Shown in pieces: positions 1-20,493 of a DNA stretch of 64,000 nt. The stretch covers positions 53-64,052 of the forward strand of contig CAUUHY010000005.1 in assembly GCA_963545265.1 (NCBI GenBank), read 5' to 3'. The number at the start of each line of letters is the position of its first letter. Positions within the stretch are counted from its first letter, which is position 1. Origin of the DNA: an uncultured Eubacteriales bacterium. Lineage in GTDB: Bacteria > Bacillota_I > Bacilli_A > RF39 > UBA660. Under the pieces are notes generated by a model. The model searched no databases, was not told the origin of the DNA, and was given only the letters and a program-made list of their open reading frames with translations. The translations under genes and the position numbers were made by a program.

Positions 1-22
1 TAAACAATTACGTTCATAACTT

Positions 23-1959: not shown

Positions 1960-1974
1960 AAGTATTTTTATATA

Positions 1975-4252: not shown

Positions 4253-4439
4253 TTTATTGTTCTCCTTTTATCATTTATATTCTACTATATATCAAAAGAA
4301 AAGAATATTACAAATAATATTCTATTTTAATTTTTTAACTAATTTTTTCTGTTAAATCTAAATCTACTAATGTATCTATTCCTCTTTCTAGTAATTTTTC
4401 TGCTACTTTTTTAACACAATCACTACTATCACCAATTTA

Positions 4440-4698: not shown

Positions 4699-4807
4699 TT
4701 ATCATTACTCCATATTATATATTCATATATAATTATGTCATATTTTTCTATTTTCTCTCTTACATTATAAAAAGCACAAAACTATTTGAGTTATTGTGCT
4801 TATGATT

Positions 4808-5236
4808 TTAATTAAATTGTCCTTTTCTTTGTTTTACTAATATAGCTCCTTTTTTCTTTGCCCATTTATATGGACTACCTACTCCATAAGGTCTTGGATA
4901 ATTATCGTAGCCATTCTTATCATTAAAGCCATATAAATAAGCCATATCATTACTATATCTAATCATTCCATTTTGTTTTAAATAGTCAAATAAATCTTCA
5001 TCTATATCATAGTTACCAATCAATTGAGAATCTTCTCCATTATTACTTGCTGGAACATTATACTTGTAATATTTCTTTTCATCCCACATAACAAATCTTG
5101 GTTTTAATTCTATTTTTTTAAAAGAACAAACACCTAGAGTTGGACAATCCATTGTATTATCATTAAACACGATAAACTCAAAAGTATTATTATCAAACGA
5201 TGTTGCATAAAATTTACCAATTTCATATTTTTCCAT
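4808..5236 (-). CDS. hypothetical protein
   Basis: ORF only. Confidence 0.35.
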   Translation of the reverse strand: MEKYEIGKFYATSFDNNTFEFIVFNDNTMDCPTLGVCSFKKIELKPRFVMWDEKKYYKYNVPASNNGEDSQLIGNYDIDEDLFDYLKQNGMIRYSNDMAYLYGFNDKNGYDNYPRPYGVGSPYKWAKKKGAILVKQRKGQFN

Positions 5237-5282
5237 ATAAATTTCACTTCCTCTCTTTTTAGTGAATCACCTATAAAAAATA

Positions 5283-5322
5283 AAAAAAGCACGGTAAATC
5301 ACTAAATAGTGACTCCGTACTT
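5283..5322 (-). terminator. Rho-independent terminator-like hairpin (ACGG-AGTCACT-ATTT-AGTGATT-ACCGT followed by a U-run on the minus strand)
   Basis: A GC-containing inverted repeat followed by TTTTTTTATTTTTT on the minus strand. It lies about 270 bp downstream of the hydrolase gene stop. Confidence 0.4.
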
Positions 5323-5593
5323 TGAAAAGTTCGTGTAGGCAAATACCCAAGATAGCTCAATATAAATATTTTATATCTCCTCACTTGGTTAATATTATAC
5401 ACCATTTTTTTAATTTTTCCAATTTCTATTGTTTAATCCATTCCAGTAATATATTCATCTTCTATTTTATCAGAACATCTTGATACAAATCTTTGTCTTC
5501 TAAACGCTTCTTAACCACATCCTTTTAAGTATATTTCTCTCTAAAGTGTTCCATAACATTTATATATTCTATCCAATATTTATCTACTAATAT

Positions 5594-6610
5594 TTATTTC
5601 ATGTGAGAAGAAATAATACTTGAATTATATGCATTATTTATGATTGGGTCAGCTAGCTCACCAACTCCTTTTCCTGATCTATTATTATGTGATCTTCCAG
5701 GAATTACATAATGTTCTATCTTTATTCCCATTGCTTTTAACGCTTCGACTGTTTTTTGTGCTCTTTCAAACATATTATATCCAAAAATTTCTCTTTGTTT
5801 TCTTCCAACTGATGAAGGAACACTTACATCAAAATAACTCATATCATGCATTGGTGCAGGATTTCCATCATCATCAAATCTAGTATTAACTTTATTTATA
5901 GTTTCTAATTCACCAACATAATATGTAAAATCAATTTCACAATAGCTATCCATGTCAAATTCTTTACCTGTTAATTCTTTATAATCAGATATACCAATTG
6001 GATAACCAATATTCTTAATTGGGACTGGTATACTCCCACTTGCTCCTCCAATACATGCGGTATGTATTAATTCAGGATGTAATAGTGAAAATCTTTGTGC
6101 GAAAACTCCAGAACTCGAATAACCATTTAAAAATATTTTATCTTCTAAATCCACTCCTATTTCTTCTTTAACAGTTATTTTAGCTTCATCAATCATTTTA
6201 ACTATTTGCTCATCTATTCTATAGCAATTGTCTTCTGGTTCTAATTCAAAGCATCCTCTTGATAATTGTTGAAAATATATTGAATTTTTACCATTTGGAA
6301 TTAAAGGAACAAGAATTACTCCAGGTTTATCTTTGGTTAAATTAACTAATTTAGCTCCAGTTTCTATACCTTGATTTATTATATTTTCAAAATTATCAGT
6401 TTCAAAATTATTCGATTCTAAAATAATTCTTTTGCTTATTTTTTCACACAATGGTATAGCTATAATACTAGGAATATTTATTCCTTTTTCAAAATCAGGT
6501 TTTTGAAATCTAATTTTATATGGTATTTGATTAATAACATAATCTAAATCAACATTTCTACCTTCTTTTATTTCTTTAGAAATATATTCTAATAATTTTT
6601 CATTTTCCAT
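5594..6610 (-). CDS. alpha/beta-hydrolase fold protein (esterase/lipase-like)
   Basis: A GxSxG nucleophile elbow (GYSSSG) is followed downstream by conserved Asp/His-containing segments. Confidence 0.6.
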   Translation of the reverse strand: MENEKLLEYISKEIKEGRNVDLDYVINQIPYKIRFQKPDFEKGINIPSIIAIPLCEKISKRIILESNNFETDNFENIINQGIETGAKLVNLTKDKPGVILVPLIPNGKNSIYFQQLSRGCFELEPEDNCYRIDEQIVKMIDEAKITVKEEIGVDLEDKIFLNGYSSSGVFAQRFSLLHPELIHTACIGGASGSIPVPIKNIGYPIGISDYKELTGKEFDMDSYCEIDFTYYVGELETINKVNTRFDDDGNPAPMHDMSYFDVSVPSSVGRKQREIFGYNMFERAQKTVEALKAMGIKIEHYVIPGRSHNNRSGKGVGELADPIINNAYNSSIISSHMK

Positions 6611-6879
6611 AAAATCGCCTTATAATAATTATACAATATATTTTCTTAATATATTTGTTTTTAATATTATTTATTATATAAAGATAATTTTTATAAAAAG
6701 TGTAAATATTCTAAATTTTAAAATTTTCATCGATATAAAATTTTTGTTTTAGAAAAAACACACTATAAACAACTATAATGTGTTATTACTAATTTTCCTT
6801 TTTTTATTTATATACTATTTTTCTAGCTACTATATCATATTAAGATATTATATCATTAAGAATATCACATACATAACAA

Positions 6880-7482
6880 CTAATAATTTGCTATAAATGG
6901 TTCATATAATTTTTTATATTTTTCAATAGATTTATCTACATCAATCCAATAATAATTTGTTAATTCGTTATCCCACTTATCTATTTTAGATTCTTTTAAT
7001 TCTCCTCCTAGTGCTTGTATCGTCTTATTTGATCCTATATTATTCACTAAACATTCTAATAATACTTTCTTTTCACCTATTTTTTGCTCTTCTAATAAAG
7101 CTAAATATAAGTTTATTTTATTATAACCTTTTCTTCTTTCTGTAGGTCTAATTCCATAACCAATATGTGAACAACCTTTAGCAATCAATTCTTTTGTTAC
7201 ATTATATCTTAAATTTACCATACCTATTATTTTATTATCATTTTGCCTAATAAGAAAATACGTTATTGATGGAGCCCATCCAATATTATTCATATAATTA
7301 AGATTAGTTTTTTTCTCTAATTTTTTTAACCAATTTTCATAAGTTGATTCTTTTAAAAATTGATTAATGCCACCAGTATCATTCATATCAACATTATATT
7401 TTATATGTTCATTAAAATAATCTATTGCTTCTTCTTTTCTTTTTAATGTAGGTTTTTCTAAATAAAACTTTTCCATTACCAC
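6880..7482 (-). CDS. GNAT family N-acetyltransferase
   Basis: Acetyl-CoA binding motif (IGYGIRPTERRKGYNKINLYLALLE) and a GNAT beta-alpha core. It is the last gene of an apparent operon with the two genes upstream. Confidence 0.65.
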   Translation of the reverse strand: MVMEKFYLEKPTLKRKEEAIDYFNEHIKYNVDMNDTGGINQFLKESTYENWLKKLEKKTNLNYMNNIGWAPSITYFLIRQNDNKIIGMVNLRYNVTKELIAKGCSHIGYGIRPTERRKGYNKINLYLALLEEQKIGEKKVLLECLVNNIGSNKTIQALGGELKESKIDKWDNELTNYYWIDVDKSIEKYKKLYEPFIANY

Positions 7483-7529
7483 CTCTTATTCATAATTATA
7501 TAACTGTTACTTCATTATAAAAATAGAAT

Positions 7530-8519
7530 TTAAAGATGTTTCCCACATTCTAAATTTTTTGTTTCCATTATGGTTATAATTGAATTGTTTGAAGTTTTAG
7601 CTTTAACCTCATAATTATCTTGCTTTTGAGTATCTAATTGATAATCAACCATTAAATCAACGCTATCTTTAATTATAGATGCATCATATCTATCTTTAGG
7701 TCTAGAATTCTTTTTAGCATTATAAATACTTTCTAAACTTTGCATTCTATATGGAATATTGTTATGTAATCTAATATCATTTGAAAATACCATTTTAGCA
7801 TAATTAGGTGCTAAATGTTTCTCATTAACTAACAATTCTTCACTTTGATTTTTACCCTTATGATAATACTCTTTGATAACTATTTCATCATTAGGCTTTC
7901 TCTCAAACAAGAACAACCCAATACTCATAGGTGTTTCTTTATATTGGATTTTAAATTCATGCCCATTTTCTTCTTTATTATCCATATTACTTATAAATTC
8001 AAATTCATCACTTTCATTTATAAGTTCATATAAAGAATATAATTGCTTTTCATTTATAAATAAATCTAAGTCACTATGATATCTTTCTAAAGAATGATTA
8101 GTTGCTAAATATCCCATTAATCCACCAGTATAATAAGCATCAAATTTAGTTCTAATTATTTGATTAAATTTATCAAACGCTTCTATTACTAATCTATGAT
8201 TATCAGATAATGACATTTGTAAATCCATCATATTCATACTCTTTAACCAATTTAGTCTTGTCATTAAATCTTCTTTTGTAGAATATTTATCAGATAGCGA
8301 TGTAATTAAATCTATATTATGAAAAACATCTTCTGGCTTGATTCTCATTGTTTCTACCAAATTATTAATATTAACTAACAAATAGTCAATGACATCTTCC
8401 TCATTCATAGTAGATAAATTTAAAATCAATTTATTACAAAGATTTTCATCATTAACATTAGCTAAATTTGAAAATTTATAAACAATTTTCTTAATTTGTT
8501 CTTTTTGTAAATCCGTCAT
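7530..8519 (-). CDS. nucleotidyltransferase-fold protein with a LinA/Lnu(A)-like active-site signature and an N-terminal ~110-aa extension
   Basis: YYTGGLMGYLATNHSLERYHSDLDLFINE matches the GGxG-x10-RxHxD[IL]D[IL] signature of lincosamide and aminoglycoside nucleotidyltransferases (Pol-beta superfamily). Confidence 0.5.
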   Translation of the reverse strand: MTDLQKEQIKKIVYKFSNLANVNDENLCNKLILNLSTMNEEDVIDYLLVNINNLVETMRIKPEDVFHNIDLITSLSDKYSTKEDLMTRLNWLKSMNMMDLQMSLSDNHRLVIEAFDKFNQIIRTKFDAYYTGGLMGYLATNHSLERYHSDLDLFINEKQLYSLYELINESDEFEFISNMDNKEENGHEFKIQYKETPMSIGLFLFERKPNDEIVIKEYYHKGKNQSEELLVNEKHLAPNYAKMVFSNDIRLHNNIPYRMQSLESIYNAKKNSRPKDRYDASIIKDSVDLMVDYQLDTQKQDNYEVKAKTSNNSIITIMETKNLECGKHL

Positions 8520-8561
8520 TTTTATTAATACCTTCTTTATGTAGATTATATCATATGTTTT

Positions 8562-9698
8562 TTATGGTAATTTGACCTCAAAATTTATATCAACAGTTTT
8601 TTTGAAATCTGGTGCAACTTCACTCAATATACTTTCATAATGCTTTTTACCTAGTAGACCACTCATAATTCTTAAATAACTTTCATAACGTTCTGGACTA
8701 ATTAATCCACTTGCTACTCCTTGTTTAACTATACAAGAATCATAAGGTTCATTAAAATGAAGACAATCATTATACTTACATTTATCTTTCCAATTTTCAA
8801 ATTCAGGAAAATAGTCTTGTATTTCAGTTGGATTAAAAGTTGAAACATCTAAGCTTCTTATACCTGGTGTATCTATAATAGAAGAATTATCTTCCCATAC
8901 ATAGTATTTTGAAGTTGTTGTTGTATGTCTTCCACGTTTACTTTTGTTACTTACATGGCTTGTTTTAATCTCTTCATCACCCATAATTGCATTAGTAAGA
9001 GAGGATTTACCAACTCCACTATTTCCAACAAATATAGATTGTTTATTTATCAAACGAGATTTTAATTCATCTATACCAATATTACCATAAGTAGATGTTT
9101 CAATTACATCTATTCCTAAATTTCTATACGTTGCTAAAATTTCTTCATCTTCATCAGTTTTTAAATCACATTTATTTAAACAAATTATTGCAGGAATATT
9201 ACTATTTTGAAGAATCATTAAATATCTATCAATAAATTTAGGATGTAATGGGGGTTCTTTTGCAGCAACAACAATTACTGCCAAATCAACATTTGAAGCA
9301 ATATTCTTTTTTGATCCAACATCATTTAATCTTGTGCTATCTTTTTTTATTCTTGATAGCATTGAAGTTCTATTTAATAAATGATTAATCACATATGAAT
9401 CATTTACTTTTTCTAAATCTACTTTATCACCAGGAAAAACAACTTGATTGCAAACTAAATTAATATCTTTTCTTAATTTAGCTAATATAACTTCTCTATT
9501 ATAAAAAATATATGCTTCATCATATCTAACTTCTATAACAACTCCATATTCATCACAAGAATCAATAATAAAGTTATCTAGCGTTTCACTTTTTTTGCCA
9601 AAAGATTTTTCTTTAGCTCTCTGTTTTTTTTCTATACTTTTTTTTGTTTTAAAACTATCATAAGCATTATAATGTGGCATTAAAATCATTCCTTTCAT
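8562..9698 (-). CDS. rsgA: ribosome small-subunit-dependent GTPase A (RsgA/YjeQ, circularly permuted GTPase) with a Lys-rich N-terminal extension
   Basis: N-terminal OB-fold region, permuted G-motifs (NKCDL ... VGNSGVGKSSL ... DTPG) and a C-terminal C-x-C-x-H...C zinc finger (CKYNDCLHFNEPYDSC). Confidence 0.7.
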   Translation of the reverse strand: MKGMILMPHYNAYDSFKTKKSIEKKQRAKEKSFGKKSETLDNFIIDSCDEYGVVIEVRYDEAYIFYNREVILAKLRKDINLVCNQVVFPGDKVDLEKVNDSYVINHLLNRTSMLSRIKKDSTRLNDVGSKKNIASNVDLAVIVVAAKEPPLHPKFIDRYLMILQNSNIPAIICLNKCDLKTDEDEEILATYRNLGIDVIETSTYGNIGIDELKSRLINKQSIFVGNSGVGKSSLTNAIMGDEEIKTSHVSNKSKRGRHTTTTSKYYVWEDNSSIIDTPGIRSLDVSTFNPTEIQDYFPEFENWKDKCKYNDCLHFNEPYDSCIVKQGVASGLISPERYESYLRIMSGLLGKKHYESILSEVAPDFKKTVDINFEVKLP

Positions 9699-10037
9699 AT
9701 AAGAATAATAACTTAATTATATTGTATCAAATTTTATTATAATAAAATTTTAATATCTAATGACAGCTATTTAATCATCTAAATCATAATAGTCAACTGT
9801 TTTTCTATCCTTGTAAATGTTTACACTTCCATCTTTTTTTATAATGTTTTCTCTTCTTATTATCTATGAAAATGATATGTTTGCAGTTCTTCATAGTTTA
9901 TTTTCCCTTAATAATTTTTAATATTATTAAGTATAATATAAAAAAACACAATATAAATAACTTTGATTTGTTTTTTAATAATAATTAAAGATTCTTCTTC
10001 AACCATATTTTCTCTCATAACTTGTTTATATTATAAA

Positions 10038-10071
10038 AATACTAAACTAGTATAAATTAGTTTAGTATTTT
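10038..10071 (-). terminator. intrinsic terminator (perfect 12-bp stem AAATACTAAACT/AGTTTAGTATTT) downstream of the 10122-10931 gene
   Basis: A perfect inverted repeat followed by a T-run on the minus strand. Confidence 0.45.
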
Positions 10072-10121
10072 TCACAATTTTACTTCTCTTAGTAGATTAA
10101 AAATATATCTGAATAAAAAAA

Positions 10122-10931
10122 TCATCTAATTTTTGGCAAACCAGAATCAGGTTGCACTGGTTCATCTGATAAATTTTCTAACTTTAAAAGATACGACTTA
10201 TTACATATAATTGTTGGTGTATAATCATTTACTGCTGCTTCATATCTATCAGGACCTTGATATGTAAACATCGGTAATGTTATTGTATATGGAAGAGAAT
10301 TAAATACTATATTTCCTTTCAAAGAATTTTCTTCATCTATTCTCACTTGTGTTTCAAGAAATTTATCTTCTGTATCATATGGATCTTTTGTAAAAGATTC
10401 ATAAATAGTTATCGCATCAGGACAATGAATTCCAAATTTTGAACAAGCTAGTTTTGCACTAGAAAACAAATTATATAAAGTACTAGAATCATTTTGACCT
10501 TTCATTTCCGCAAATTTATAATATTCGTAAGTTCTATTCATAAAATTTATTAAGTTTGAACCACTTTTAAAAGCAAGAGTAGCTAAATCTTTTTCAATAA
10601 ATTTTGCATATTTATGTTTTTCTATATAACCAACACCATAATTAGCAGGTAATGCATATTGACTTTCATCATATTCTTCAGTTGGTTCTTTCTTTTTATT
10701 CATTTCATATACCCGTACTAAATATTTCGAAATGTTTAAAACTCTTTTCTTTATATTTGTATCTTTTATTAAATCAATTTGCTTATCAAAATTTTTTAGT
10801 AATTCCAATATTATTTTAATATTTTCATTTACATATTTTTCATAATATGAAATGTCATATTCATTTGAATTATCAAGTCTACTTCTTCCTAAAACAACCA
10901 ATTCATCTATATCATCTAATGTAAAATACAT
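10122..10931 (-). CDS. hypothetical protein
   Basis: ORF only. Confidence 0.35.
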   Translation of the reverse strand: MYFTLDDIDELVVLGRSRLDNSNEYDISYYEKYVNENIKIILELLKNFDKQIDLIKDTNIKKRVLNISKYLVRVYEMNKKKEPTEEYDESQYALPANYGVGYIEKHKYAKFIEKDLATLAFKSGSNLINFMNRTYEYYKFAEMKGQNDSSTLYNLFSSAKLACSKFGIHCPDAITIYESFTKDPYDTEDKFLETQVRIDEENSLKGNIVFNSLPYTITLPMFTYQGPDRYEAAVNDYTPTIICNKSYLLKLENLSDEPVQPDSGLPKIR

Positions 10932-11031
10932 AACATTTTCTCCAATACTACATATAGTATAACTTTTTTTAAAAAAAATATCATTTATTTCATTTTATTA
11001 TATAAAACAATTTAAAAAACTTAATTTTCAT

Positions 11032-11886
11032 CTATTTTTGTATAGGTTTATTGGATTCTTGATTTTCTTTTATAAAATTTTTAGAAGCTTCAAGACCAAA
11101 TGTATAATACGGTGTATCTCCATCAAATGTATAATCATCTAATAGTCCATTCCGTCCATACAATTGTCTATATAATTTTTCAGTTTTGGTTAAATCAATC
11201 TTATGCGGCTCACCCATTTTTAAGGACTTGTATTCTTCCTCCGATAAAGGTTTACAGTATCCAAATGAAAATTTTTTATCACCATTTATAAAGTTTACAA
11301 AATGTGACGAATCATAAATTACAACAGGAAAATTCCCATAACCTTTAGGATAAACTAAGTTATATGCATGCAATTCTAAATCTCTGGCACCTACAACTAC
11401 TTCTGAATCTATCCCTAATAACTTAAACATATTATGTGATAATCCTGATTTTTCAGAACAAAAGGCAACACTATTATCTCTAATATCTTTAATAGAAACT
11501 TTATCACCTTCATGAGAGACATATGTAAAATATCTACCAAATCCTATATCATCAGAAGGCAAATAGTCGTGTACTTCAAAAAATATAGTTGTAAATAATG
11601 ATAATTCATTATACCAAGAGTTTTCTTTAATCGATTTTATAAGATTAACATAAGGTTCGATATCATCATAAACTAAGTCAGGACATTCTGCATCATCAAA
11701 CTTATCTCCCGGTTTATAATGAACTTTAGAAGAAATATAATCACTAAAGCTATCGGTATAATTTTGACCTACTGTTTTTTCTTCTGCTATATCTTCTAAT
11801 TCTGCTATTCTTAATTTTACAAATTCTCTTATTTCTTCTTCATCTTTTAATTCAAATATTCTTTTATTAATTTCCTCTTTAGTCAT
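11032..11886 (-). CDS. hypothetical protein
   Basis: ORF only. Confidence 0.35.
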   Translation of the reverse strand: MTKEEINKRIFELKDEEEIREFVKLRIAELEDIAEEKTVGQNYTDSFSDYISSKVHYKPGDKFDDAECPDLVYDDIEPYVNLIKSIKENSWYNELSLFTTIFFEVHDYLPSDDIGFGRYFTYVSHEGDKVSIKDIRDNSVAFCSEKSGLSHNMFKLLGIDSEVVVGARDLELHAYNLVYPKGYGNFPVVIYDSSHFVNFINGDKKFSFGYCKPLSEEEYKSLKMGEPHKIDLTKTEKLYRQLYGRNGLLDDYTFDGDTPYYTFGLEASKNFIKENQESNKPIQK

Positions 11887-11944
11887 ATTATCTAACTCCT
11901 TATATAAATTATATTTATCATATTCTTTATTTATAATATGTCAA

Positions 11945-12330
11945 GTAATCTTTTTATATTTGTATCATTTAAATTTGCATAATTAACTACTGTTGCTCTT
12001 ATATTTTTTACTTCATTAGTTATGTTTTTTAGTTCATCAATTTATGATATATAAACTAACATTCTTGAATACTGAGTAAAGTCCACATCTGTTGTTTCTT
12101 TATATTTCTTTTTTTTACCAATTTTTGAATATTCATAATCAATTCGTAAAGATTTAATTTCGTAATTATTTAATATTTATGGTACTATTACACCTAAACA
12201 AACTATCCATTGTTTAACTGGAAATATTTTCATATTATTAATTTGATTATCTATTAATCCTGTTCCATCCTTTTCAGGCAATTGATTAACAACTTCTTCA
12301 TCAAATTTTATTTTTTCAATTCATCAGTTG
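11945..12330 (-). pseudogene. decayed gene remnant (coherent reading frame interrupted by in-frame stops)
   Basis: The minus-strand frame reads EKIKFDEEVVNQLPEKDGTGLIDNQINNMKIFPVKQWIVCLGVIVP*ILNNYEIKSLRIDYEYSKIGKKKKYKETTDVDFTQYSRMLVYIS*IDELKNITNEVKNIRATVVNYANLNDTNIKRLL. No intact ORF of 60 aa or more covers this 450-bp gap. Confidence 0.35.
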
Positions 12331-12397
12331 AACATTATCTATATTTTTTAACAAAAAACAAGTTATATTATCTCTAATCAATTGTTCTTTCTTTATT

Positions 12398-13402
12398 CTA
12401 ATCTACATATCCAATTATTTCTTTTAATTCACTATATGGATAAGGAGCTTCATCCTCGTTATAATATGCAATATTAACAACTCTAGCTTCTACCTCTTCG
12501 TCGTTCAAGCCTCTAGGAACAAGAATAACATCTCCAATCTTATAATCATGATCTGATTTATAGCTATATAATCTATCTCCATACATATCAGAATACTCAA
12601 CATATATATACTTTAATTTTTGTTTTTTCTTCTTTTTGACATAGTACTTACCATATTTTTTATTAAATTCATCCATTGTGTTTATTGTATAAGTTTCAGG
12701 TTCTAAGTTAGGATATGCATAACTTATAGAACCTCCATTACTACCTTTTTCTTTAATCATGAAATTAACTTGTTTATGAGGATAATCATCTGTATCTCTT
12801 TGTTTTCTTATACCATTTTCTACAACATATTCATGACCATTATTTGTTTTATCTATTGTATATATAAGTAAATTATCAAATGATTCTGTATCAAAACTAT
12901 ATTTTACAAAACTTTCGTAAGTTAATTCATACTCTCTATCAATTATATTTTTATCTAAATCTATTATATATACTTTAGTCAAATCATTAGTTACATAATA
13001 TTTATATGGATTAACTGGATTTCTTTTTAGCAAATCTTTAATAGGAGTTTTTTCAAACTCATCTGTATATTCGTTTATATTCATTACTAAATATTCATTT
13101 AATTTTTTTATTTCGTCAATCGATATCTTATCTAATGATTTTGTTAGTTCAAATTTTCTATAACAATATTCTGGTTTATAACTCCATAAATGAGCTGTTT
13201 TGCAATCATCACATAACCAAAAATAATCATTATCTTCATAAAATGATGCCATTTCTTCATAAGCATCATCAAAATTCTTAGTATCATCATTTGCTATATA
13301 ATCTTTTAAATCTTTGAAACTAAAAATATCATATACTATATGACCATCACCATCCCACATATTAGCTCCACATTTACATCCCATATGACTCATTAGTAAC
13401 AC
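12398..13402 (-). CDS. hypothetical protein with an N-terminal zinc-ribbon-like Cys cluster (CKCG ... CDDC)
   Basis: ORF only. C-x-C and C-x2-C pairs are present in the first 70 aa. Confidence 0.4.
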   Translation of the reverse strand: MLLMSHMGCKCGANMWDGDGHIVYDIFSFKDLKDYIANDDTKNFDDAYEEMASFYEDNDYFWLCDDCKTAHLWSYKPEYCYRKFELTKSLDKISIDEIKKLNEYLVMNINEYTDEFEKTPIKDLLKRNPVNPYKYYVTNDLTKVYIIDLDKNIIDREYELTYESFVKYSFDTESFDNLLIYTIDKTNNGHEYVVENGIRKQRDTDDYPHKQVNFMIKEKGSNGGSISYAYPNLEPETYTINTMDEFNKKYGKYYVKKKKKQKLKYIYVEYSDMYGDRLYSYKSDHDYKIGDVILVPRGLNDEEVEARVVNIAYYNEDEAPYPYSELKEIIGYVD

Positions 13403-13545
13403 CTCTCTTCACATATAAATATATCATGCTTTTAGTATATTTTTTGCAATTAACACTTCATTATAAAAATTATATAGCCAAGCACTAAATCAAAGTGACT
13501 CCAGAATGGCTCCAGCCCTTATTTTGGACTATTTTTTGATAAAAA

Positions 13546-13611
13546 GAAAAACTCGTAAGTCCTTATTTATAGGACTTTAGGAGTCTTATTTACCACTACT
13601 ACCACATGGCC
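13546..13611 (-). repeat. degenerate copy (A) of the secA 3' end plus terminator module
   Basis: It aligns with 17956-18045. The terminator hairpin ACTCGTAAGTCC...GGACTTTAGGAGT is retained, and the SEC-C codons are shortened to PCGSSGK*. Confidence 0.5.
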
Positions 13612-13738
13612 TTTTGTATTCGAAATTTTGAAAGTTTTTTTGAAACAATTGGAAACTTATGTGAGCACTCCATAGCACTCGGTAAAACTAGCAAAACTTA
13701 TCTAAAAAAATTTAATTTTAATTTTTTACCATTTTTAA

Positions 13739-15016
13739 TTATAGTTTTATTGTTTCAAGAGCATCAATATTAATTAACATTTCATTACCATCATCCATAT
13801 TCTTAATTTTCAATTGACCACTAGAAATTTCATCAGTTCCTATAACTATGACATATTTAATTTTTTCTCTATTAGCATAATCAAGTGATTTTTTTAGTTT
13901 TCTTTTATTCATTTCTATATCAACATTATAACCATTTTTTCTAAATTGGTTTGCAAGTTTTAAAGATTCTATTTCTGTTCCCATCGGTATGATAAAGATA
14001 TCAGTATTTGACTTTTCTTTTTCTAAATCCTTTTTTAATAATTCATATATAGCAGATAGGCCAAAACTAATTCCAACAGTAGGATATTCTTTTCCGTCTC
14101 CTATAAAGTTTCCAATCATTTCGTCATATCTTCCACCTGCTGCAATGCTACCTTTTATTCTTTCTCTTTTATCATAAACTTCAAATATATTTCCTGTATA
14201 GTAATTTTGACCTCTTGCTAATGTAATATCAAAATTACAACAATTGAGTTCAAGTTGTCTTAAGTATTCACTCAAATTATTTACTTCTTCTAATCCTTTT
14301 AATATTTTTTCATTATTAGTATTTTTAAAAACTTGATTTAATGTTGATAAATTCATCTGAAAATAATTGTTTAGATTTTTTATTACTTTTTCTGTTAATC
14401 CTAACTCCGATAACATTTGATTGAACTCTATATCTTTTAGTTTATCTTTCTTATCTACAATAGTTGTTACCTCTGGTACTAAGTCTTCAGATATTCCTGA
14501 CTCAATAATTAATCCGCTCATAAGTTTTCTACTATTGTATTTAATTATAATTTCAATATTAAATTCTTTAAATGTTTTTACAAATAATGATAATAGCTCT
14601 GCTTCAATATATTGTCCTTTTATACCAACAACATCTGCATCACATTGAGTAAATTCTCTATCTCTACCAACTTTAACAGGTCCATCTCTAAACACTTTTG
14701 ATATCTCATATCTCTTAAATGGAAGTGATATTTTATTTTTATTTAATGCTATAAACTTTGCAAAAGGAACTGTTAGATCATATCTTAATCCTAAATTTCT
14801 ATTTCCTTGGTCTGTTAATCTATATATTTCTTTTAAAATATCATTATTTTCATCATACTTATCACTAAGCATATCATAATAGCATAATATAGGTGTTTCA
14901 ATATTAACAAATCCATATTTTTTAAAATTATCTATTATTATACTATTTATATAATTTCTAATTTTTTGTTCTTTAGGTAAAAAATCATAACCACCTTTAA
15001 CATTTTGTATTTTCAT
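13739..15016 (-). CDS. hisS: histidine--tRNA ligase
   Basis: Class II aaRS motifs (GxRYDLTVPFARF-like, GGRYD) and a C-terminal anticodon-binding domain. The start is set at the Met preceded by an AGGATGA Shine-Dalgarno. Confidence 0.85.
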   Translation of the reverse strand: MKIQNVKGGYDFLPKEQKIRNYINSIIIDNFKKYGFVNIETPILCYYDMLSDKYDENNDILKEIYRLTDQGNRNLGLRYDLTVPFAKFIALNKNKISLPFKRYEISKVFRDGPVKVGRDREFTQCDADVVGIKGQYIEAELLSLFVKTFKEFNIEIIIKYNSRKLMSGLIIESGISEDLVPEVTTIVDKKDKLKDIEFNQMLSELGLTEKVIKNLNNYFQMNLSTLNQVFKNTNNEKILKGLEEVNNLSEYLRQLELNCCNFDITLARGQNYYTGNIFEVYDKRERIKGSIAAGGRYDEMIGNFIGDGKEYPTVGISFGLSAIYELLKKDLEKEKSNTDIFIIPMGTEIESLKLANQFRKNGYNVDIEMNKRKLKKSLDYANREKIKYVIVIGTDEISSGQLKIKNMDDGNEMLINIDALETIKL

Positions 15017-15025
15017 AATAATCAT

Positions 15026-15262
15026 CCTATCTATTTTTTCAATTAAAAAAGCTATACAATGGTCCTTGTATAGCTAAATCATTTATATATTTAAAGCTAG
15101 ATACAAGCACCACAAATAGCACTTGTACCATGTACATTTTTTAACGTCGGTTCAAGTGCAAATTATTATGATAATGTAAATTAGTTAATTTTAAGTTTAA
15201 CATAACAATCTCTCCCTTTTAATGTAATAAATTATAGTGCTTTTTACATAACTTTGCAAATT
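15026..15262 (-). promoter_or_regulatory. hisS leader: near-consensus sigma-A promoter (TTGCAA-17-TATAAT at 15254-15231) and a ~200-nt leader. The leader ends in a perfect terminator hairpin (AGCTATACAA-ggacca-TTGTATAGCT plus U6 at 15045-15075) with an upstream competing antiterminator sequence (CTTGTATCTAGCT). This is a probable T-box riboswitch.
   Basis: The promoter hexamers and the terminator are read directly. The antiterminator alternative pairing overlaps the terminator 5' arm. hisS is commonly T-box regulated in Firmicutes. The canonical T-box 14-mer is only partly recognisable. Confidence 0.45.
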
Positions 15263-15308
15263 TCATAAAAAACTTATCTAAAATTTTTAAATTGTAATTT
15301 TTTATTCA

Positions 15309-15334
15309 ACAACTTATCTAATAACTTATCTAAA
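15309..15334. repeat. 26-bp perfect direct repeat ACAACTTATCTAATAACTTATCTAAA, copy 1 (two tandem 12-mers), abutting the methyltransferase stop codon
   Basis: Identical to 16839-16864. Confidence 0.7.
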
Positions 15335-15970
15335 TTATTTCATTTTTCTAGCCTTAATTAAACTATAATCGTCTTTATCAACATTACTTGAAGTTATTTC
15401 TTGAAAGCCAACCTTTTTTAATACTTCTATTTCATGTTCAACAGTAAGTGGTGTATCTATATGTTTGTGATTTTCTATATTGTTTTCTAGTTCATATAAT
15501 TGACCATCTTCTATTTCTTGTGATAAAGCTATCTTATCGCAATTTATAAATTGACCATTTTCTTTTAAACAATCATATATCTTTTTATATAGTTTTATTT
15601 TTTCTTCTATTTTAAAGTGATGAAGAGCTGATGTAGATATAACTGCATCATAATTATCTCCAAATTCTACTTCAAAGAAATCACCACATATAGTAGTTAC
15701 ATGATCTGCAAAACTTCTTTTCTTTAATTCTTCAAGCATATTTTCGGTAATATCTATGACTGTTACTTCAGCACCTGGAAATAGTTCAAATACATGAATT
15801 AATTCTAATCCTGTACCTGCACCCAAGTCTAATATTTTTTTAGTTTCTTTGTCTAAGCTATCTCCTAATGTTTTTTTAGTTTCCATATATGTACTATGTA
15901 CATCATCATAAGAATCTATCTTTTCATTAAAGAATGTTCTTTGTTTTTGATTTCTTTCATATAAATTCAT
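15335..15970 (-). CDS. class I SAM-dependent methyltransferase (small-molecule type)
   Basis: Motif I ILDLGAGTG and a post-I acidic residue, in a Rossmann-like fold. Confidence 0.7.
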   Translation of the reverse strand: MNLYERNQKQRTFFNEKIDSYDDVHSTYMETKKTLGDSLDKETKKILDLGAGTGLELIHVFELFPGAEVTVIDITENMLEELKKRSFADHVTTICGDFFEVEFGDNYDAVISTSALHHFKIEEKIKLYKKIYDCLKENGQFINCDKIALSQEIEDGQLYELENNIENHKHIDTPLTVEHEIEVLKKVGFQEITSSNVDKDDYSLIKARKMK

Positions 15971-15972
15971 AA

Positions 15973-16527
15973 TTATATCCCCCTTAAATTTACTTCTATA
16001 TTATTTCTAATTAAATCTTTGATTTCTTTATCTGTTAATTTAATACTATTTACACATAACTGTGTTGCTATACCATGAGTATAGAATCTTACTTCACGAT
16101 ATACCTTTTTTGCTTCTCCTAAAGATATTTTATATTGTTTTACCATTGCATTAATAGTTTCAACGTTTCTATCAGTATTTAACACTTCTTCTACTGTTCT
16201 AGAACCAGCAAAATCAGTCATAAACAATGAAAAGAATATATTTGGTTCTTTTTTTGCATAAAAAGCATATGCATAACTTATTGTGTATAAATAATCTTTT
16301 ATATCTATATACTTACGAATAAATGATGAGTAATCTTTCCTTAAATAAAATTTTAGATCTTCTTTATACATATCAAAGTTTTCATAGTTTTTAAATATTG
16401 GTTGTGTTGAACATCCTATATATTTAGCAAGTTCTCTAACTGTTAGATTAGAGTAACCTTTTTCCTTTATAAATTCAACACTCTTTTCTAATATATCTTC
16501 TTTAGAATATTTAATAGTTCTCGCCAT
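15973..16527 (-). CDS. TetR/AcrR family transcriptional regulator
   Basis: N-terminal HTH (LTVRELAKYIGCSTQPIFKNY). The start is set at the ATG with a GAGGTGA Shine-Dalgarno; the longer ORF begins at a GTG. Confidence 0.75.
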   Translation of the reverse strand: MARTIKYSKEDILEKSVEFIKEKGYSNLTVRELAKYIGCSTQPIFKNYENFDMYKEDLKFYLRKDYSSFIRKYIDIKDYLYTISYAYAFYAKKEPNIFFSLFMTDFAGSRTVEEVLNTDRNVETINAMVKQYKISLGEAKKVYREVRFYTHGIATQLCVNSIKLTDKEIKDLIRNNIEVNLRGI

Positions 16528-16550
16528 AAATATCACCTCACAAACGCATA

Positions 16551-16568
16551 AAATAACATTTGTTATTT
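16551..16568. promoter_or_regulatory. candidate TetR operator: perfect 8-bp inverted repeat AAATAACA-tt-TGTTATTT about 25 bp upstream of the tetR start
   Basis: A palindrome with the geometry typical of TetR-family operators. Confidence 0.4.
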
Positions 16569-16653
16569 TATTTTTAATGATTTAATATGTTTTTTAGAAA
16601 AAAACGTATCTAAAGTACTTTTTTGATAAAAATTACTAAAAATGTGGAACAAA

Positions 16654-16741
16654 GAAAAATCTCGCAATCCCTTTATTTATAAGGGAAAACGAGATTATTT
16701 ACCACAACATTGTTTATATTTCTTACCACTTCCACATGGTA
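16654..16741 (-). repeat. copy (B) of the secA 3' end plus terminator module
   Basis: It is 37/38 identical to the secA SEC-C codons (encodes ...LPCGSGKKYKQCCGK*). The terminator hairpin carries compensatory changes (TCCC/GGGA versus GTCC/GGAC). Confidence 0.6.
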
Positions 16742-16838
16742 ATAATTTAAAACAACCAGGTAATTTTTTCCTTTTAAATTGGTGTTTTTTATTTAAAACT
16801 TATAATTTTTTGTTCAATTATTGTAAGTTTTTTTTCGT

Positions 16839-16864
16839 ACAACTTATCTAATAACTTATCTAAA
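16839..16864. repeat. 26-bp perfect direct repeat, copy 2, about 25 bp downstream of the UDG-fusion gene stop
   Basis: Identical to 15309-15334. Confidence 0.7.
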
Positions 16865-16888
16865 AAAATTATTTTAGTGTGCTGAGAT

Positions 16889-17797
16889 CTAAAAGTTTGT
16901 AATATCTTGTAAATTCAAATTCTTAAATATTTCTTCATTACCTTTATAACTTAATGGTGATATAGGACTAGGATGATATATAGGGATTATTTTATATCCA
17001 TTTACATCAAATACCTTTCCAACAACATCAGAAAACCTTTTATATTTTACATCTAAAATCGTTCTAGTTGCAGAATATCCTAATGATAGTATTACTTTAG
17101 GTTTTATTTCTTCTAATTGCATAAAAAGAAATTTTTTACAGTTGATACTACACTTGTTTAAATATTTTTTATCAATAGGATAGCATTTTATTGCTTCAAT
17201 AAAATATGTATCTTCAATTGTTAAATTTATTAAATTTAATAATTTTTGCAAAACAACACCAGATGGTAACAATTTATGATTTATATCATACCATGCTATC
17301 CCACTTTTTCTCCAACCATTATTAGCTGGTGCTTCACCAAGTATAACAACATCTTTTTGCTTTCCAAATGAAACAGTTTTGCTATTAGGAAACTTTTCCA
17401 CCATATTTGAACACAAACTACAATTTTGGATTTTTTCATCTATAAGATTTAACTTAACTTTTAATTTTAGTAATTGATATCTTTCATTAGTATCTTCATT
17501 ATTTAAAACTTCATCTCTTGTTTTAATAACATAATTTGAATAATCAATTTTATCAACTTTAAATTGATCAGATGTAAAATCAATAATTTTATCATTGATA
17601 ATATTAAAATAATGACTAATACCGTTTATTTTTATTTTACAAATATTACCACCAAAATAATCATTTATCAATAATGCTACAATAGCACAATGTCCTAGAG
17701 TTTTATTATCTATATTCCATTGCTCTTTACAATCAGGATAACAAGTTTCTTTAGAATATATATTAATTAATATTTTTTCTAGTTTATCTAATTTCAT
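16889..17797 (-). CDS. fusion protein: N-terminal Cys-containing domain of unknown function plus a C-terminal uracil-DNA glycosylase superfamily domain (family 4/5-like)
   Basis: The C-terminal half has CxxC (NCSLCSNM), a GEAPA motif (VVILGEAPANNGW) and an HPSP motif (IYHPSPISPL), which are typical of UDG families 4 and 5. Confidence 0.55.
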   Translation of the reverse strand: MKLDKLEKILINIYSKETCYPDCKEQWNIDNKTLGHCAIVALLINDYFGGNICKIKINGISHYFNIINDKIIDFTSDQFKVDKIDYSNYVIKTRDEVLNNEDTNERYQLLKLKVKLNLIDEKIQNCSLCSNMVEKFPNSKTVSFGKQKDVVILGEAPANNGWRKSGIAWYDINHKLLPSGVVLQKLLNLINLTIEDTYFIEAIKCYPIDKKYLNKCSINCKKFLFMQLEEIKPKVILSLGYSATRTILDVKYKRFSDVVGKVFDVNGYKIIPIYHPSPISPLSYKGNEEIFKNLNLQDITNF

Positions 17798-17957
17798 ATT
17801 ATCCCTCAGCTAATAAATATTATATCATAAATCATTCATATTTCTTTATTTGTAATATTATTTATTTTTATTATCTAAAGAAGCAATTAAATCAGCAAAA
17901 AACTTATCTAAAACTTGTCCAGGACAAAAGATACGCTATAATTACCTAAATATTGCA

Positions 17958-18003
17958 ATCATAGAAAAACTCGCAAGTCCTTATTTATAGGACTTTACGA
18001 GTC
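17958..18003 (-). terminator. secA intrinsic terminator (GACTCGTAAAGTCC-loop-GGACTTGCGAGT plus a U-run)
   Basis: A hairpin immediately after the secA stop codon, followed by TTTTTCT on the minus strand. Confidence 0.65.
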
Positions 18004-20493
18004 TTATTTTCCACAACATTGTTTATATTTCTTTCCACTTCCACATGGACACATGTGGTTTCTACCTACTTTTTCTATATTTTTAGGTTTATTTTTTAAC
18101 TTAACTTTTCCATCATTAGTCATTTTTGACTTAGATATTTCTTGTCTTTCTTGATTTTGAGATATTTCAGATTTAACTAAGAATAAAGTTATTTCTTGAT
18201 CTATATTTTGTAACATCTTATTAAATAAGTCAAAACCTTCTACTGTATAAGCTCTAAGCGGATCTTGTTGACCATATCCTCTTAAATATATAGCTTCTCT
18301 AAAATGTTCCATAGCATTTATATGTTCTGTCCAGTATTTATCTACTACACTTAAAGTTATAACTTTTTCAAATTCTTCTACTACTTCAGTTGGTAATTCT
18401 TTTATTTTTTCTTGATATTCACTTAATATTTTTTCTTTTACAAAATATATTATAGCATCAGAATCCATTGAAGCTATTTCATCAAATTTAATATCTTCTC
18501 TAAGTAATGTATTAAAATATTCGACTATTTCTTGTAGATCTTCTTTTGTTAATTTTTCACTATCTATTAGTTTTGATTTAACAACATCAGTAACATGGTT
18601 TTCTACTGCGACTAAAATACTATCGTGAATAGATTCACTATCTAATATTTCATTTCTCTTAGCATACATTATTTCTCTTTGATTATTCATAACATCATCG
18701 TATTGTAATAAATTTTTACGAATATCAAAGTTGTTTCCTTCAACTCTTTTTTGTGCTGAAGAAAGCCCTTTAGTAAATCTCTTACTAGTTATTGCTTCTG
18801 TTTCTTCAAAACCTAATCTAATAAGCATATTCTTTAGACCATCAGTTCCAAATCTAACCATTAAATCATCTTCCATAGAAACATAAAATTGACTAAATCC
18901 AGGATCTCCTTGTCTTCCACTTCTTCCTCTTAACTGATTATCAATTCTTCTTGATTCATGTCTTTCAGTTCCTAAAACACATAAACCTCCAAGATCTTTA
19001 GTTTCATCAGTAAGTTTAATGTCAGTTCCACGACCTGCCATATTAGTTGCAACTGTAACTGCGCCTTTTTGTCCTGCTTTAGCTATAATTTCTGCTTCTC
19101 TAGCGTTGTTTTTAGCATTTAAGACTTCATGTTCGATATTTTTAGATGTCAACAATTGACTAATTAATTCATTAGTTTCTACAGCTATAGTACCAATAAG
19201 TATCGGTTGACCTAATTTATGTCTTTTTTCAACTTCATTAATTAAAGAAGTAAATTTACCTTTTTGTGTTGGATATAACAAATCTGGAGCATCTATTCTT
19301 GCTACTGGTTTATTAGTAGGAATACAAATAACTCTCATATTATATATATCATTAAATTCTTCTTCTTCAGTTTTAGCAGTACCTGTCATACCAGATAATT
19401 TATTATACATTCTAAATAAGTTTTGGAATGTTATAGTAGCTAAAGTCTTAGTTTCTTGATTAATCTTAACGTTTTCTTTAGCTTCTATAGCTTGATGAAG
19501 ACCATCACTATATGCTCTTCCCTTCATTAAACGTCCAGTAAATTGATCTACTATAACTATTTCACCATTATTAACTACATAATCTACATCTTTTCTCATA
19601 GAGAAATTAGCACGCAAAGCCTGATTAATATGATGAATTAAATTAGCATTTGATACTTCATAAAGATTAGCTAAATGGAATTCTTTTTCTCCTTTTTTAA
19701 CTCCTTCTTCTGTAAGTGTAACTGTCTTATTTTGTTCTTCATAGATATAATCTACATCTTTTTTTAATTTCTTAGCAAATCTATCTGCTGCTTCATACAT
19801 AGAAACATTTTTTAAATCTCCTCCAGATATAATTAAAGGAGTTCTAGCTTCATCTATTAAAACTGAGTCAACTTCATCTACTATTGCAAAATTAAGTTTT
19901 CTTTGTACTCTATCTTCTTTATGAGTAACCATATTATCTCTTAGATAATCAAATCCAAGTTCATTATTTGTAGTATATAAAATATCACATTCATATGCTT
20001 TTTTCTTTTCTTGTGGAGTTAAATCTCTTAAATTTATTCCAACGCTAAGTCCTAAAAATTCATGTATTCTTCCCATCCACTTAGCATCACGATCTGCAAG
20101 ATATTCATTAACAGTTACTATGTGTGTACCTTTACCATCTAGTGCATTTAAATAAGCTGGTAAGACAGAAGTTAAAGTTTTACCTTCTCCTGTTTTCATT
20201 TCAGCTATATTACCTTTATGTATAGCAATAGCACCAAGTAATTGAACATAGAATGGTTTTTCATTATTTACTCTAAATGCTGCTTCTCTTGCCGTAGCAT
20301 AAGCTTCAACTAAAATATCATCTAATGTTTCACCATTTTCTAATCTATTTTTAAATTCATCAGTCTTTGCTTTTAATTCATAATCTGAAAGTTTAGAATA
20401 TTCTTCTTCTAACTCTTCAATTTTATCAGCAATTACAGAAAATTTTTTAAGTTCTCTATAATCTTGATCAAATAATCTTTTTAAAAAATTCAT
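18004..20493 (-). CDS. secA: preprotein translocase ATPase SecA
   Basis: DEAD-like motor motifs, a preprotein cross-linking domain and a C-terminal SEC-C zinc finger (CPCGSGKKYKQCCGK). Confidence 0.95.
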   Translation of the reverse strand: MNFLKRLFDQDYRELKKFSVIADKIEELEEEYSKLSDYELKAKTDEFKNRLENGETLDDILVEAYATAREAAFRVNNEKPFYVQLLGAIAIHKGNIAEMKTGEGKTLTSVLPAYLNALDGKGTHIVTVNEYLADRDAKWMGRIHEFLGLSVGINLRDLTPQEKKKAYECDILYTTNNELGFDYLRDNMVTHKEDRVQRKLNFAIVDEVDSVLIDEARTPLIISGGDLKNVSMYEAADRFAKKLKKDVDYIYEEQNKTVTLTEEGVKKGEKEFHLANLYEVSNANLIHHINQALRANFSMRKDVDYVVNNGEIVIVDQFTGRLMKGRAYSDGLHQAIEAKENVKINQETKTLATITFQNLFRMYNKLSGMTGTAKTEEEEFNDIYNMRVICIPTNKPVARIDAPDLLYPTQKGKFTSLINEVEKRHKLGQPILIGTIAVETNELISQLLTSKNIEHEVLNAKNNAREAEIIAKAGQKGAVTVATNMAGRGTDIKLTDETKDLGGLCVLGTERHESRRIDNQLRGRSGRQGDPGFSQFYVSMEDDLMVRFGTDGLKNMLIRLGFEETEAITSKRFTKGLSSAQKRVEGNNFDIRKNLLQYDDVMNNQREIMYAKRNEILDSESIHDSILVAVENHVTDVVKSKLIDSEKLTKEDLQEIVEYFNTLLREDIKFDEIASMDSDAIIYFVKEKILSEYQEKIKELPTEVVEEFEKVITLSVVDKYWTEHINAMEHFREAIYLRGYGQQDPLRAYTVEGFDLFNKMLQNIDQEITLFLVKSEISQNQERQEISKSKMTNDGKVKLKNKPKNIEKVGRNHMCPCGSGKKYKQCCGK

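Follow-up and report, generated by a model that had tools for sequence, protein, structure and literature searches.

Repeated copies of the secA 3' end

We analysed a stretch of 64,000 nucleotides (nt) from an uncultured Eubacteriales bacterium (contig CAUUHY010000005.1, positions 53 to 64,052), referred to here as the window, in which the 3' end of the gene secA is present in three copies. The secA coding sequence lies on the minus strand at 18004-20493 and appears in the list of open reading frames (ORFs) with a product of 829 amino acids (aa), matching the Pfam families SecA_DEAD, SecA_PP_bind, P-loop_SecA, SecA_SW and SEC-C. All genes in the region of the array are on the minus strand. The repeated unit consists of the terminal 15 codons of secA, which encode the SEC-C zinc-finger motif, together with a terminator hairpin. 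Read on the minus strand, the end of secA is CCATGTGGAAGTGGAAAGAAATATAAACAATGTTGTGGAAAATAA from 18048 to 18004, and it continues into a hairpin and a T run from 18003 to 17965. Tail C (18004-18048, CCATGTGG...GGAAAATAA) comprises the SEC-C codons for PCGSGKKYKQCCGK and the stop codon and forms the present C-terminus of secA. Behind it stand hairpin C and a U run (17965-18003), an intrinsic terminator that folds as such, is matched by a terminator scan, and would have been supplied with the first cassette described below. Tail B (16695-16739) carries displaced SEC-C codons and a stop codon, is non-coding in its present position, and is followed by hairpin B and a U run (16654-16694). Tail A is shortened: its sequence from 13611 to 13588, CCATGTGGTAGTAGTGGTAAATAA, reads PCGSSGK*, and with hairpin A and its U run it occupies 13545-13611. 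All of these elements are on the minus strand.

An earlier description of this DNA, made from its letters and termed here the sequence-only reading, had reported three copies of the secA 3' end, and every detail of it that was checked proved right. A precise alignment of the copies showed homology far beyond chance, with the first 38 nt of tail B identical to tail C at 37 positions. Searching with a degenerate 38-mer of the SEC-C stretch returned exactly C and B, against 0.00 matches expected from shuffled sequences, and hairpin A is identical to hairpin C at 42 of 44 positions (0 expected from shuffles). All three hairpins formed stable folds, of -19.1 kcal/mol for hairpin C (z -6.8), -18.6 kcal/mol for B (z -6.6) and -13.7 kcal/mol for A (z -3.3). 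The stem of hairpin B is preserved by compensatory changes, reading GUCC/GGAC in C and CCC/GGG in B, as had been stated. The description of an abrupt homology boundary held as well, with homology setting in at the identical base, CCATGTGG, in all three copies.

Conserved boxes mark three cassettes in the window

The 11-mer TTAGATAAGTT occurs eight times as an exact match in the 64-kb window, and seven of these occurrences fall within 13695-17911, all on the minus strand (0.31 expected). Within the array the matches are located at cassette boundaries, where a further box with one mismatch, TTAGATACGTT, lies at 16613-16603. The boxes stand approximately 45 nt past a terminator and 105-130 nt ahead of a core or displaced tail. 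The sole exact match outside the array (38593-38603) is accompanied by a one-mismatch copy 63 nt away (38530-38540); both are on the minus strand inside the ORF at 37737-39071 and may be there by chance.

With the boxes as landmarks, the window is seen to hold three integrase-less cassettes and not the two inserted segments of the sequence-only reading. Behind secA, tail C and its hairpin, the first cassette opens with a left arm (17901-17964, TATGATTGCAATATTTAGGTAATT...) that has a degenerate box at 17922-17912 and an intact TTAGATAAGTT box at 17911-17901 and that aligns with the attL arms of phages described below. Its cargo (16889-17797) is a 302-aa protein with Pfam matches to YunG and the uracil-DNA-glycosylase (UDG) superfamily, and its right arm (16740-16863) has two TTAGATAAGTT boxes, 16863-16853 and 16851-16841, spaced 12 nt apart and approximately 100 nt from the core. 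This right arm is of the type termed subtype Ib below, and arms homologous to it were found at loci L074, L102 and L125 of the comparative set. Tail B and its hairpin come next, followed by the left arm of the second cassette (16603-16653), with TTAGATACGTT as its one box. The second cargo (15335-16536) consists of a TetR-family regulator (15973-16536) and an S-adenosylmethionine-dependent methyltransferase (15335-15970), both identified with Pfam. The right arm is truncated here (15285-15333): two TTAGATAAGTT boxes, 15333-15323 and 15321-15311, are followed by approximately 25 nt more, and no tail, hairpin or remainder of the arm is present. The third cassette follows directly, with a left-arm box at 15281-15271 and a leader (together 15026-15281) containing a promoter-like site (15260-15231) and a terminator-like hairpin (15075-15050). 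Its cargo, hisS, encodes histidyl-tRNA synthetase (13739-15025, Pfam), and its right arm (13612-13705, subtype Ia) has a box at 13705-13695 and then TTGCTAGTTTTACCGAGTGCTATGGAGTGCTC... up to the core, homologous to arms at L006, L061 and L063 and to the attR arm of a prophage. The array ends with tail A and its hairpin, beyond which lies the flank (13470-13544). All of these features, like secA, are on the minus strand.

A tail has been lost between the methyltransferase gene and hisS: TetR-methyltransferase cassettes elsewhere have a following tail, and homology to them stops at 15291/15282, inside the right arm. The methyltransferase-hisS junction is common to the window and to L192 and L193. 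The YunG and UDG parts of the first cargo form one ORF in the window and are called as two genes (120 and 171 aa) in L193-L199, so that there is either a fusion here or a disruption there.

An empty site and recurrence across relatives

To place the array among its relatives, a secA-based scan with one genome per species was used, which gave 80 loci from metagenome-assembled genomes (MAGs) of uncultured gut Bacilli. They carry titles such as 'Bacilli bacterium', 'Tenericutes', Clostridium sp. CAG:710, CAG:762 and Candidatus Scybalousia, and they probably correspond to the GTDB order RF39. In the closest locus, L001, with approximately 85-90% nt identity to the window, the secA tail runs straight into the homolog of the flank that in the window lies past copy A (blastn, L001 10876-11002 against window 13599-13470, 78.6% identity), and the whole 13.6-18.0 kb block is absent. 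L001 thus represents the unoccupied site. Strains of the window's own species differ in cassette content both between secA and hisS and past hisS.

A tail profile was applied to the loci, and of the 42 having at least 3 kb downstream of secA, 22 contain additional tails, without exception on the secA strand. When genomes and metagenomes were taken together, the total rose to 199 tails in 122 loci, always co-oriented with secA, with at most five per array and with mixed junction types. As with tails C, B and A, the target core forms a direct repeat at both ends of the inserted DNA in these 122 loci. The sequence-only reading had proposed that DNA was inserted repeatedly at a secA 3' attachment site and that every insertion carried in a new tail and terminator; the empty site in L001, the differences between strains and the recurrence in 122 loci bear this out. 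There are 77 tail-to-tail segments, and the segments lying between tails measure 0.4-8.7 kb. Those with type I arms (defined below) on both sides number 28, are 712-3246 bp long (median 1652) and are coding almost only on the secA strand.

The displaced tails retain the marks of a coding sequence. In a non-redundant set, 77 of 106 (73%) still read as the canonical SEC-C peptide followed by a stop codon, and over the 106 tails codon position 3 has an entropy of 1.28, positions 1 and 2 having 0.45 and 0.41. This third-position bias and the intact reading imply that most of the displaced tails were recently in service as the end of secA. The proteins of the window cassettes had no homologs among the 80 genome loci. 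In 17 of 76 loci the contig ends less than 300 nt past the secA tail (e.g. L005, L007, L031, L045, L064 and L071), probably as a result of repeated tails and strain variation at a hotspot.

Arm families, integrases and prophages at the same site

The sequences adjoining the tails fall into families that are conserved across species. Right arms of type I contain a pair of TTAGATAnnTT boxes with a spacing of 12 nt; in subtype Ia the boxes are followed by CTGCTAGGTTTGCCGAGTGCT..., and subtype Ib is the form at window copy B. The type I left arm begins behind the hairpin with TATGATTACAATATTTAGGTAATT... and then has two boxes 11 nt apart. Searching metagenomes with a 24-mer of the type Ia left arm, the arm also present in the first cassette of the window, gave 54 loci with up to five tails. 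At 46 of these loci a SEC-C tail and hairpin lay ahead of the 24-mer, and the double box lay behind it. When cassette and phage arms, both left and right, were aligned, the double box was the most consistently conserved block. In a second arm family, ATAAATAC-like repeats fill the right arms, and the left arms contain TGTCCACA or TGTGCACA boxes. The TGTCCACA motifs were also considered as DnaA boxes, an assignment we rejected, as they are the arm repeats of this other element family and adjoin integrases of 430-443 aa.

Recombinases were sought with profiles seeded with XerD and resolvase sequences, which served as leads only, and matches were confirmed with Pfam on a sample. No tyrosine or serine recombinase was detected in the 64-kb window by profile or Pfam, in agreement with the sequence-only reading, nor was one found in any of the 28 segments that type I arms flank on either side. 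Integrases do occur in the related prophages and in the other families of elements at this site. In the ATAAATAC/TGTCCACA family the tyrosine integrases combine Arm-DNA-bind_4, SAM-like and catalytic domains; elements of 3.7-4.5 kb have them as two overlapping ORFs, and elsewhere they are genes of 430-443 aa directly past secA. The split form is alike in seven loci (L012, L027, L051, L063, L075, L085 and L128; e.g. L051 14071-14583 and 14565-15314), where an ORF of approximately 170 aa with the arm-binding and SAM-like domains overlaps a catalytic ORF of approximately 210-245 aa in another frame; it could be a programmed frameshift or a two-part enzyme. One type I cassette, in L091, contains a minus-strand integrase that we do not count as its own. 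It belongs to an IS91-type unit (4719-6681) inserted on the opposite strand, composed of a Y2 transposase (Y2_Tnp) with a zinc-binding domain and the adjacent tyrosine recombinase.

The arms of the type I cassettes recur in phages. A search of IMG/VR for double boxes with a period of 11 nt gave five viral loci on four distinct contigs, in which a secA tail, a hairpin, 30-40 nt and a double box are followed by a tyrosine integrase of 373-376 aa on the opposite strand. This integrase has a Phage_integrase match and a weak Arm-DNA-bind_4 match, and downstream of it lie a cI-like repressor (HTH_3 and Peptidase_S24), a cro-like gene, SSB and replication genes. These contigs are temperate phages. 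One of them, a prophage contig of 35,139 bp, has SEC-C tails at both ends. Its attR arm reads TTAGATACGTTT-TTAGATACTTT-CTGCTA..., with a double box of 12-nt period approximately 125 nt ahead of CCTTGTGG, which is the architecture of the cassette right arms, including the arm before window copy A. The TTAGATAnnTT double boxes thus stand at fixed distances in both arms of cassettes and in phage attL and attR. At L139 a cassette and an integrase-bearing prophage stand in tandem. Because the cassette arms match the attL and attR of prophages with a tyrosine integrase adjoining the same boxed arm, and because other families carry their own integrases, the absence of an integrase from the window can be accounted for.

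The phage integrase is at most approximately 31% identical to its nearest counterpart in a phage collection, that of the C. difficile phage phiMMP02. A homology search with it returned three known contigs and one distant match (28%) and recovered no free attP form. In viral contigs, the right-arm motif GAGTGCTNNGGAGTGCTC and a 30-mer of the type Ia left arm gave chance matches or none, and double boxes with a period of 12 nt matched only coding sequences of the LDKLLDK type.

Signs of cassette movement and a probable crossover position

The TetR-methyltransferase cassette (window 16747-15291) was found in nine other arrays at 85-94% nt identity, and its slot in the array varies. It lies directly past secA in L089, L093, L107 and L120, is the third segment in L102, stands past at least four earlier tails in L125, and is also present in L110, L117 and L135. 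Tails flank it on both sides in L089, L102, L107 and L117, where the contig extends far enough, and in L125, L110 and L135 one flank is missing from the contig. Strains of the window's species can be compared through contigs with a 100%-identical HisS. Most of these have YunG/UDG, TetR and methyltransferase genes before hisS, L192 has a different set, and in L197 a ProRS-like gene, an SMC/AAA_21 gene and fragments of an integrase lie within one element. Past hisS, a cassette with an APH-type phosphotransferase lies ahead of the next gene in most strains and is absent from the window and L199. The shortened tail A occurs only in these two; L192-L198 have a full-length tail at that position, followed by the APH cassette.

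Two comparisons bear on where recombination takes place. The attL and attR of the 35,139-bp prophage are identical only over CCTTGTGGAAGTGG; the remainder of attL, tail and hairpin, is of phage type, and the remainder of attR gives the ending ...CCGKNA*, which secA has in other genomes. In L192 and L193, the last 1500 nt of secA are 98.9% identical and the first cassettes differ. Their tails are identical through CCATGTGGAAGTGG; the following 31 nt contain 4 differences, and past the stop codon the sequences are unrelated. From these junctions we infer a crossover within the first approximately 14 nt of the tail, in a mapping that is not fully consistent. With the crossover there, each tail and hairpin would arrive with the cassette downstream of it. 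The YunG-UDG cassette would then be the source of tail C, and the TetR-methyltransferase cassette that of tail B, so that copy B need not be the old end of secA. The proposal that each insertion brings a replacement 3' end and displaces the old one is supported. Homologous exchange between the many repeats probably also occurs.

hisS and other cargo

A HisS protein 100% identical to that of the window is encoded on at least 35 contigs, always downstream of secA; the window ORF has 428 aa, and the start used in databases gives 425 aa. Orthologs from other species, with 86% and 73% identity, are also found in secA arrays, and L203 and L205 show the 73% ortholog in a clean unit of tail, box-box, hisS, box-box and tail. 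A HisS identical to this 73% type lies in L204 behind a gene (4311-6632) for a 773-aa protein that has NERD and SEC-C domains and is not SecA, in ICE-like (integrative and conjugative element) surroundings with genes for ArdA, ParB, MobC, a relaxase and a coupling protein. The presence of the cassette at this gene implies that the target is the SEC-C codons themselves and that cassettes can sit on a conjugative-type element. The sequence-only reading had taken the apparently essential hisS as a possible sign of an old, fixed event. This holds in so far as hisS appears fixed in the window's species; it does not hold for relatives, where the gene is cassette-borne and mobile (L203-L205). The hisS leader had no Rfam T-box match even at E<=1, and a scan of 9-24 kb at the Rfam gathering threshold found no family; the leader may be a divergent T-box or another attenuator.

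Aminoacyl-tRNA synthetases are a recurrent cargo in relatives, with MetRS, ArgRS and class II enzymes of Pro/Thr/Gly type besides HisRS. Synthetase genes of this kind lie in secA arrays of different species, in L063 (17378-19009), L200 (4925-6592 and 8956-10491), L091 (1645-2769) and L030 (13560-14897). Other cargo includes a GH10 hydrolase, DNA methylases, DUF4365, DUF3644 with a restriction-endonuclease-like domain, a radical SAM protein and RhuM, as well as APH, nucleotidyltransferase, GNAT, Fic and HD proteins.

Proposed mechanism and alternative explanations

We consider it likely that the array arose by tandem accretion of non-autonomous, att-flanked cassettes, resembling cis-mobilizable elements (CIMEs), at an attB in the 3' end of secA, through recombination by tyrosine integrases and probably with phage integrases moving the cassettes in trans. 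In this mechanism the attB would be the last 15 codons of secA, the SEC-C codons, used by several families of integrative elements in the uncultured gut Bacilli clade. The attP would contain, in order, an upstream arm, a short core identical to secA and starting at CCWTGTGG, replacement SEC-C codons with a stop codon, usually a terminator hairpin, and a downstream arm. Campbell-type integration by a tyrosine integrase would leave secA intact, finished by the tail and terminator of the element, and would push the previous tail downstream, so that repeated integration would yield a co-oriented array. The boxes would be arm-type sites of the integrase, and temperate phages with the same site and boxed arms most likely supply, in trans, the integrase that integrates, excises and reshuffles the type I cassettes of the window. 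Action of the phage integrase on the cassettes, like the exact crossover position, should be taken as provisional. The array in the window is partly eroded, with one tail lost, tail A shortened and some boxes degenerate, and hisS appears fixed; the copies in the window may therefore be poorly mobile or immobile.

Several observations weigh against this explanation. There is no integrase in the window or in any type I cassette, so that action in trans is something we infer, and carriage of such a phage by the window's species could not be shown. The arms in the window are partly degenerate, with a single box at three of them, a tail missing and tail A truncated, and the copies may no longer move. 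Given how the recombinase search was seeded and sampled, a novel recombinase among the unannotated cargo is possible. The tails ahead of TetR-methyltransferase cassettes differ in their 5' halves between lineages, which does not entirely fit the mapped crossover and suggests additional homologous exchange or variable cut sites. Tentatively, and with considerable doubt, the proposal can be widened: the secA tail may be the docking point of an active, phage-integrase-driven, integron-like exchange, in which miniature attP cassettes, every one with a working secA C-terminus and terminator, circulate between strains and species, some of them on conjugative elements with a SEC-C-tailed decoy gene, and in which synthetase genes (hisS in the window; argS, metG and class II genes of pro/thr/gly type in relatives) are cassette-borne, possibly as the only copy in reduced genomes.

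If the cassettes were instead inert relics, that is, serially integrated prophages or islands that deletion has reduced to one or two cargo genes flanked by attL and attR and that form a fixed fossil here, then the erosion of the window arms, the lost tail and the shortened tail A would be expected, as would the position of hisS, which is the same in 8 of 8 strain contexts. Decayed integrase fragments do occur in the other element family (L091, L111, L124 and L197), and CIMEs classically arise by decay followed by accretion (PMC5704250). We nevertheless regard this as a somewhat unlikely account. No integrase remnant was found in the 28 type I segments or in six more with a variant left arm, although in the phages the int gene adjoins the left arm; the same small cassette sits in different slots and in different species; cassettes are present or absent at strain level within one species; an identical hisS cassette lies in two unrelated contexts; and the majority of displaced tails are intact. 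A fossil is possible for the window genome and fits the clade-wide pattern poorly. Homologous recombination might also build and shuffle such an array, with the SEC-C codons and terminator serving as portable homology for RecA exchange after DNA uptake. The identical junction upstream of hisS in L192 and L193 despite different upstream cargo is compatible with this, as are mosaic tails and the longer displaced pieces of secA: a divergent 3' end of approximately 1.2 kb in L013 (18394-19643) and, in L089 (near 6004), a tail still preceded by 30 nt or more of coding sequence. These pieces suggest that homologous recombination within secA also imports islands. Such exchange can swap cassettes but cannot create a 45-nt target duplication that starts at the same base in more than 100 junctions, nor does it explain the conserved boxes at fixed distances, which are the same as those at phage att sites beside an arm-binding integrase. 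As the origin of the array it is therefore improbable, and terminator-mediated homologous recombination, which the sequence-only reading had raised as another possible mechanism, is not needed as the primary one, since it leaves the precise repeated junctions and the arms unexplained.

An integron-like platform, in which a host-encoded integrase at a fixed chromosomal place captures cassettes at secA, would account for small, co-oriented, integrase-less cassettes that each end in a conserved site with a hairpin, and for integron-like cargo such as modifying enzymes, defence genes and unknowns. We think this very unlikely, because no integrase adjoins secA or lies elsewhere in the 64-kb window, integrases occur only inside elements and never at a fixed position in the 122 loci, and the sites are not imperfect palindromes of the attC type: they combine a coding tail and hairpin with arms of 60-130 nt containing direct repeats, in a lambda-type arrangement that matches phage att sites. 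Almost no credence attaches to the view that the displaced tails are small functional genes for SEC-C zinc-finger micro-peptides. The frame of copy B, PCGSGKKYKQCCGK-stop, is intact, as in 73% of the 106 displaced tails, and it had been suggested that copy B might encode a micro-ORF lacking an ATG. There is indeed no ATG in frame upstream of copy B, nor a GTG or TTG, and the coding idea itself found no support: in relatives, the sequence ahead of displaced tails is interrupted by stop codons, and its conservation is that of DNA arms and not of peptides, and the intactness of the frame is explained by recent service as the C-terminus of secA. Phage satellites (phage-inducible chromosomal islands and similar elements) were also considered and rejected; the cassettes do not have an integrase, replication genes or packaging-interference genes of their own, and the cargo is YunG-UDG, TetR, methyltransferase and HisRS. 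No dif-like XerC/XerD sites (28 bp) were noticed on reading the junctions, and no search aimed at dif was made; with arms of phage type, there is no need to invoke Xer-dependent modules.

Relation to known systems

CIMEs are att-flanked elements without integration genes that adjoin related elements in tandem arrays at gene 3' ends, as with ICESt1 and ICESt3 at fda in Streptococcus thermophilus (PMC5704250). The window cassettes are likewise flanked by attL and attR, carry no integration or transfer genes, and stand in tandem at the 3' end of a gene. They differ in being much smaller (0.7-3.3 kb, with one to three genes) and numerous, with up to five tails per array, in having the SEC-C codons of secA as their target, and in having arms that match the att sites of temperate phages and not those of ICEs. 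As regards an origin by decay, the arms match those of prophages, and the type I cassettes contain no remnants of phage genes, integrases or other recombinases. Temperate phages of lambda type integrate into gene 3' ends by means of an attP that brings a replacement end and arm-type sites for the integrase. The autonomous relatives resemble them, being prophages in which int lies beside attL and a cI/cro switch is present; both arms have direct-repeat boxes, and the N-terminal domain of the integrase is of arm-binding type (weak match). In the window, by contrast, there is no phage but only miniature elements that keep both arms. In Dehalococcoides, many islands have accumulated at the 3' end of a single-copy essential gene, ssrA; 16 of 31 have an integration module, and they are a major source of strain diversity (PMC3146451). 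Those islands use a tmRNA target and other integration genes and measure approximately 12 kb, whereas the target here is secA and the cassettes are 1-3 kb.

Integron cassettes share with those described here the small, co-oriented, recombinase-less arrays, a recombination site at the end of each cassette and accessory cargo. Unlike integrons, the present arrays have no adjacent intI and no attC but long direct-repeat arms, and their target lies in a coding sequence that each cassette must restore. Staphylococcal cassette chromosome (SCC) elements at the 3' end of rlmH (orfX) in staphylococci also form composite tandem arrays, some without a recombinase of their own, with repeated target ends. 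SCC elements are moved by Ccr serine recombinases and have short repeats of approximately 15 bp, in contrast to the tyrosine integrases and the replacement of a full 45-nt coding tail with its terminator seen here.

Integration into gene 3' ends, replacement ends, CIMEs and tandem accretion are already known. We found no report of secA as an attachment site in the literature searched, and so far as that literature goes the site, its use by several integrase families across an uncultured clade, the abundance of miniature, integrase-less, phage-armed cassettes and the recurrent tRNA synthetase cargo appear to be new. The analysis identifies the SEC-C codons of secA as an integration hotspot, observed in more than 100 related assemblies and used by at least two or three integrase families across a large uncultured gut clade, and the hotspot probably explains a recurrent break in the assembly of MAGs from this clade. 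Much strain-level gene content, including defence genes, enzymes of drug-modifying type and regulators, enters as recombinase-less cassettes of 1-3 kb with phage att arms, which can be viewed as a lambda-type counterpart of integron cassettes. The cargo raises the question of whether essential tRNA synthetase genes are traded horizontally as cassettes in reduced genomes. The tail and arm motifs provide simple handles with which metagenomes can be searched for such cassettes and for the phages that may move them.

Other features of the window

The region downstream of the array is itself highly variable. Between window 1-13470 and L001 11002-16700, approximately 9 kb of mostly unannotated genes is replaced by approximately 3.2 kb of other genes; the 9 kb in the window includes ORFs of 334, 284 and 269 aa without a Pfam match, RsgA and a GNAT protein. 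The gene prfB, the usual neighbour of secA in relatives, does not lie within 18 kb in the window. Upstream of secA are hpf and a gene for a 1074-aa protein with an N-terminal methylation motif. A tmRNA gene is present on the minus strand at 33531-33885, with the tag peptide GNLFKKQAYAFA.

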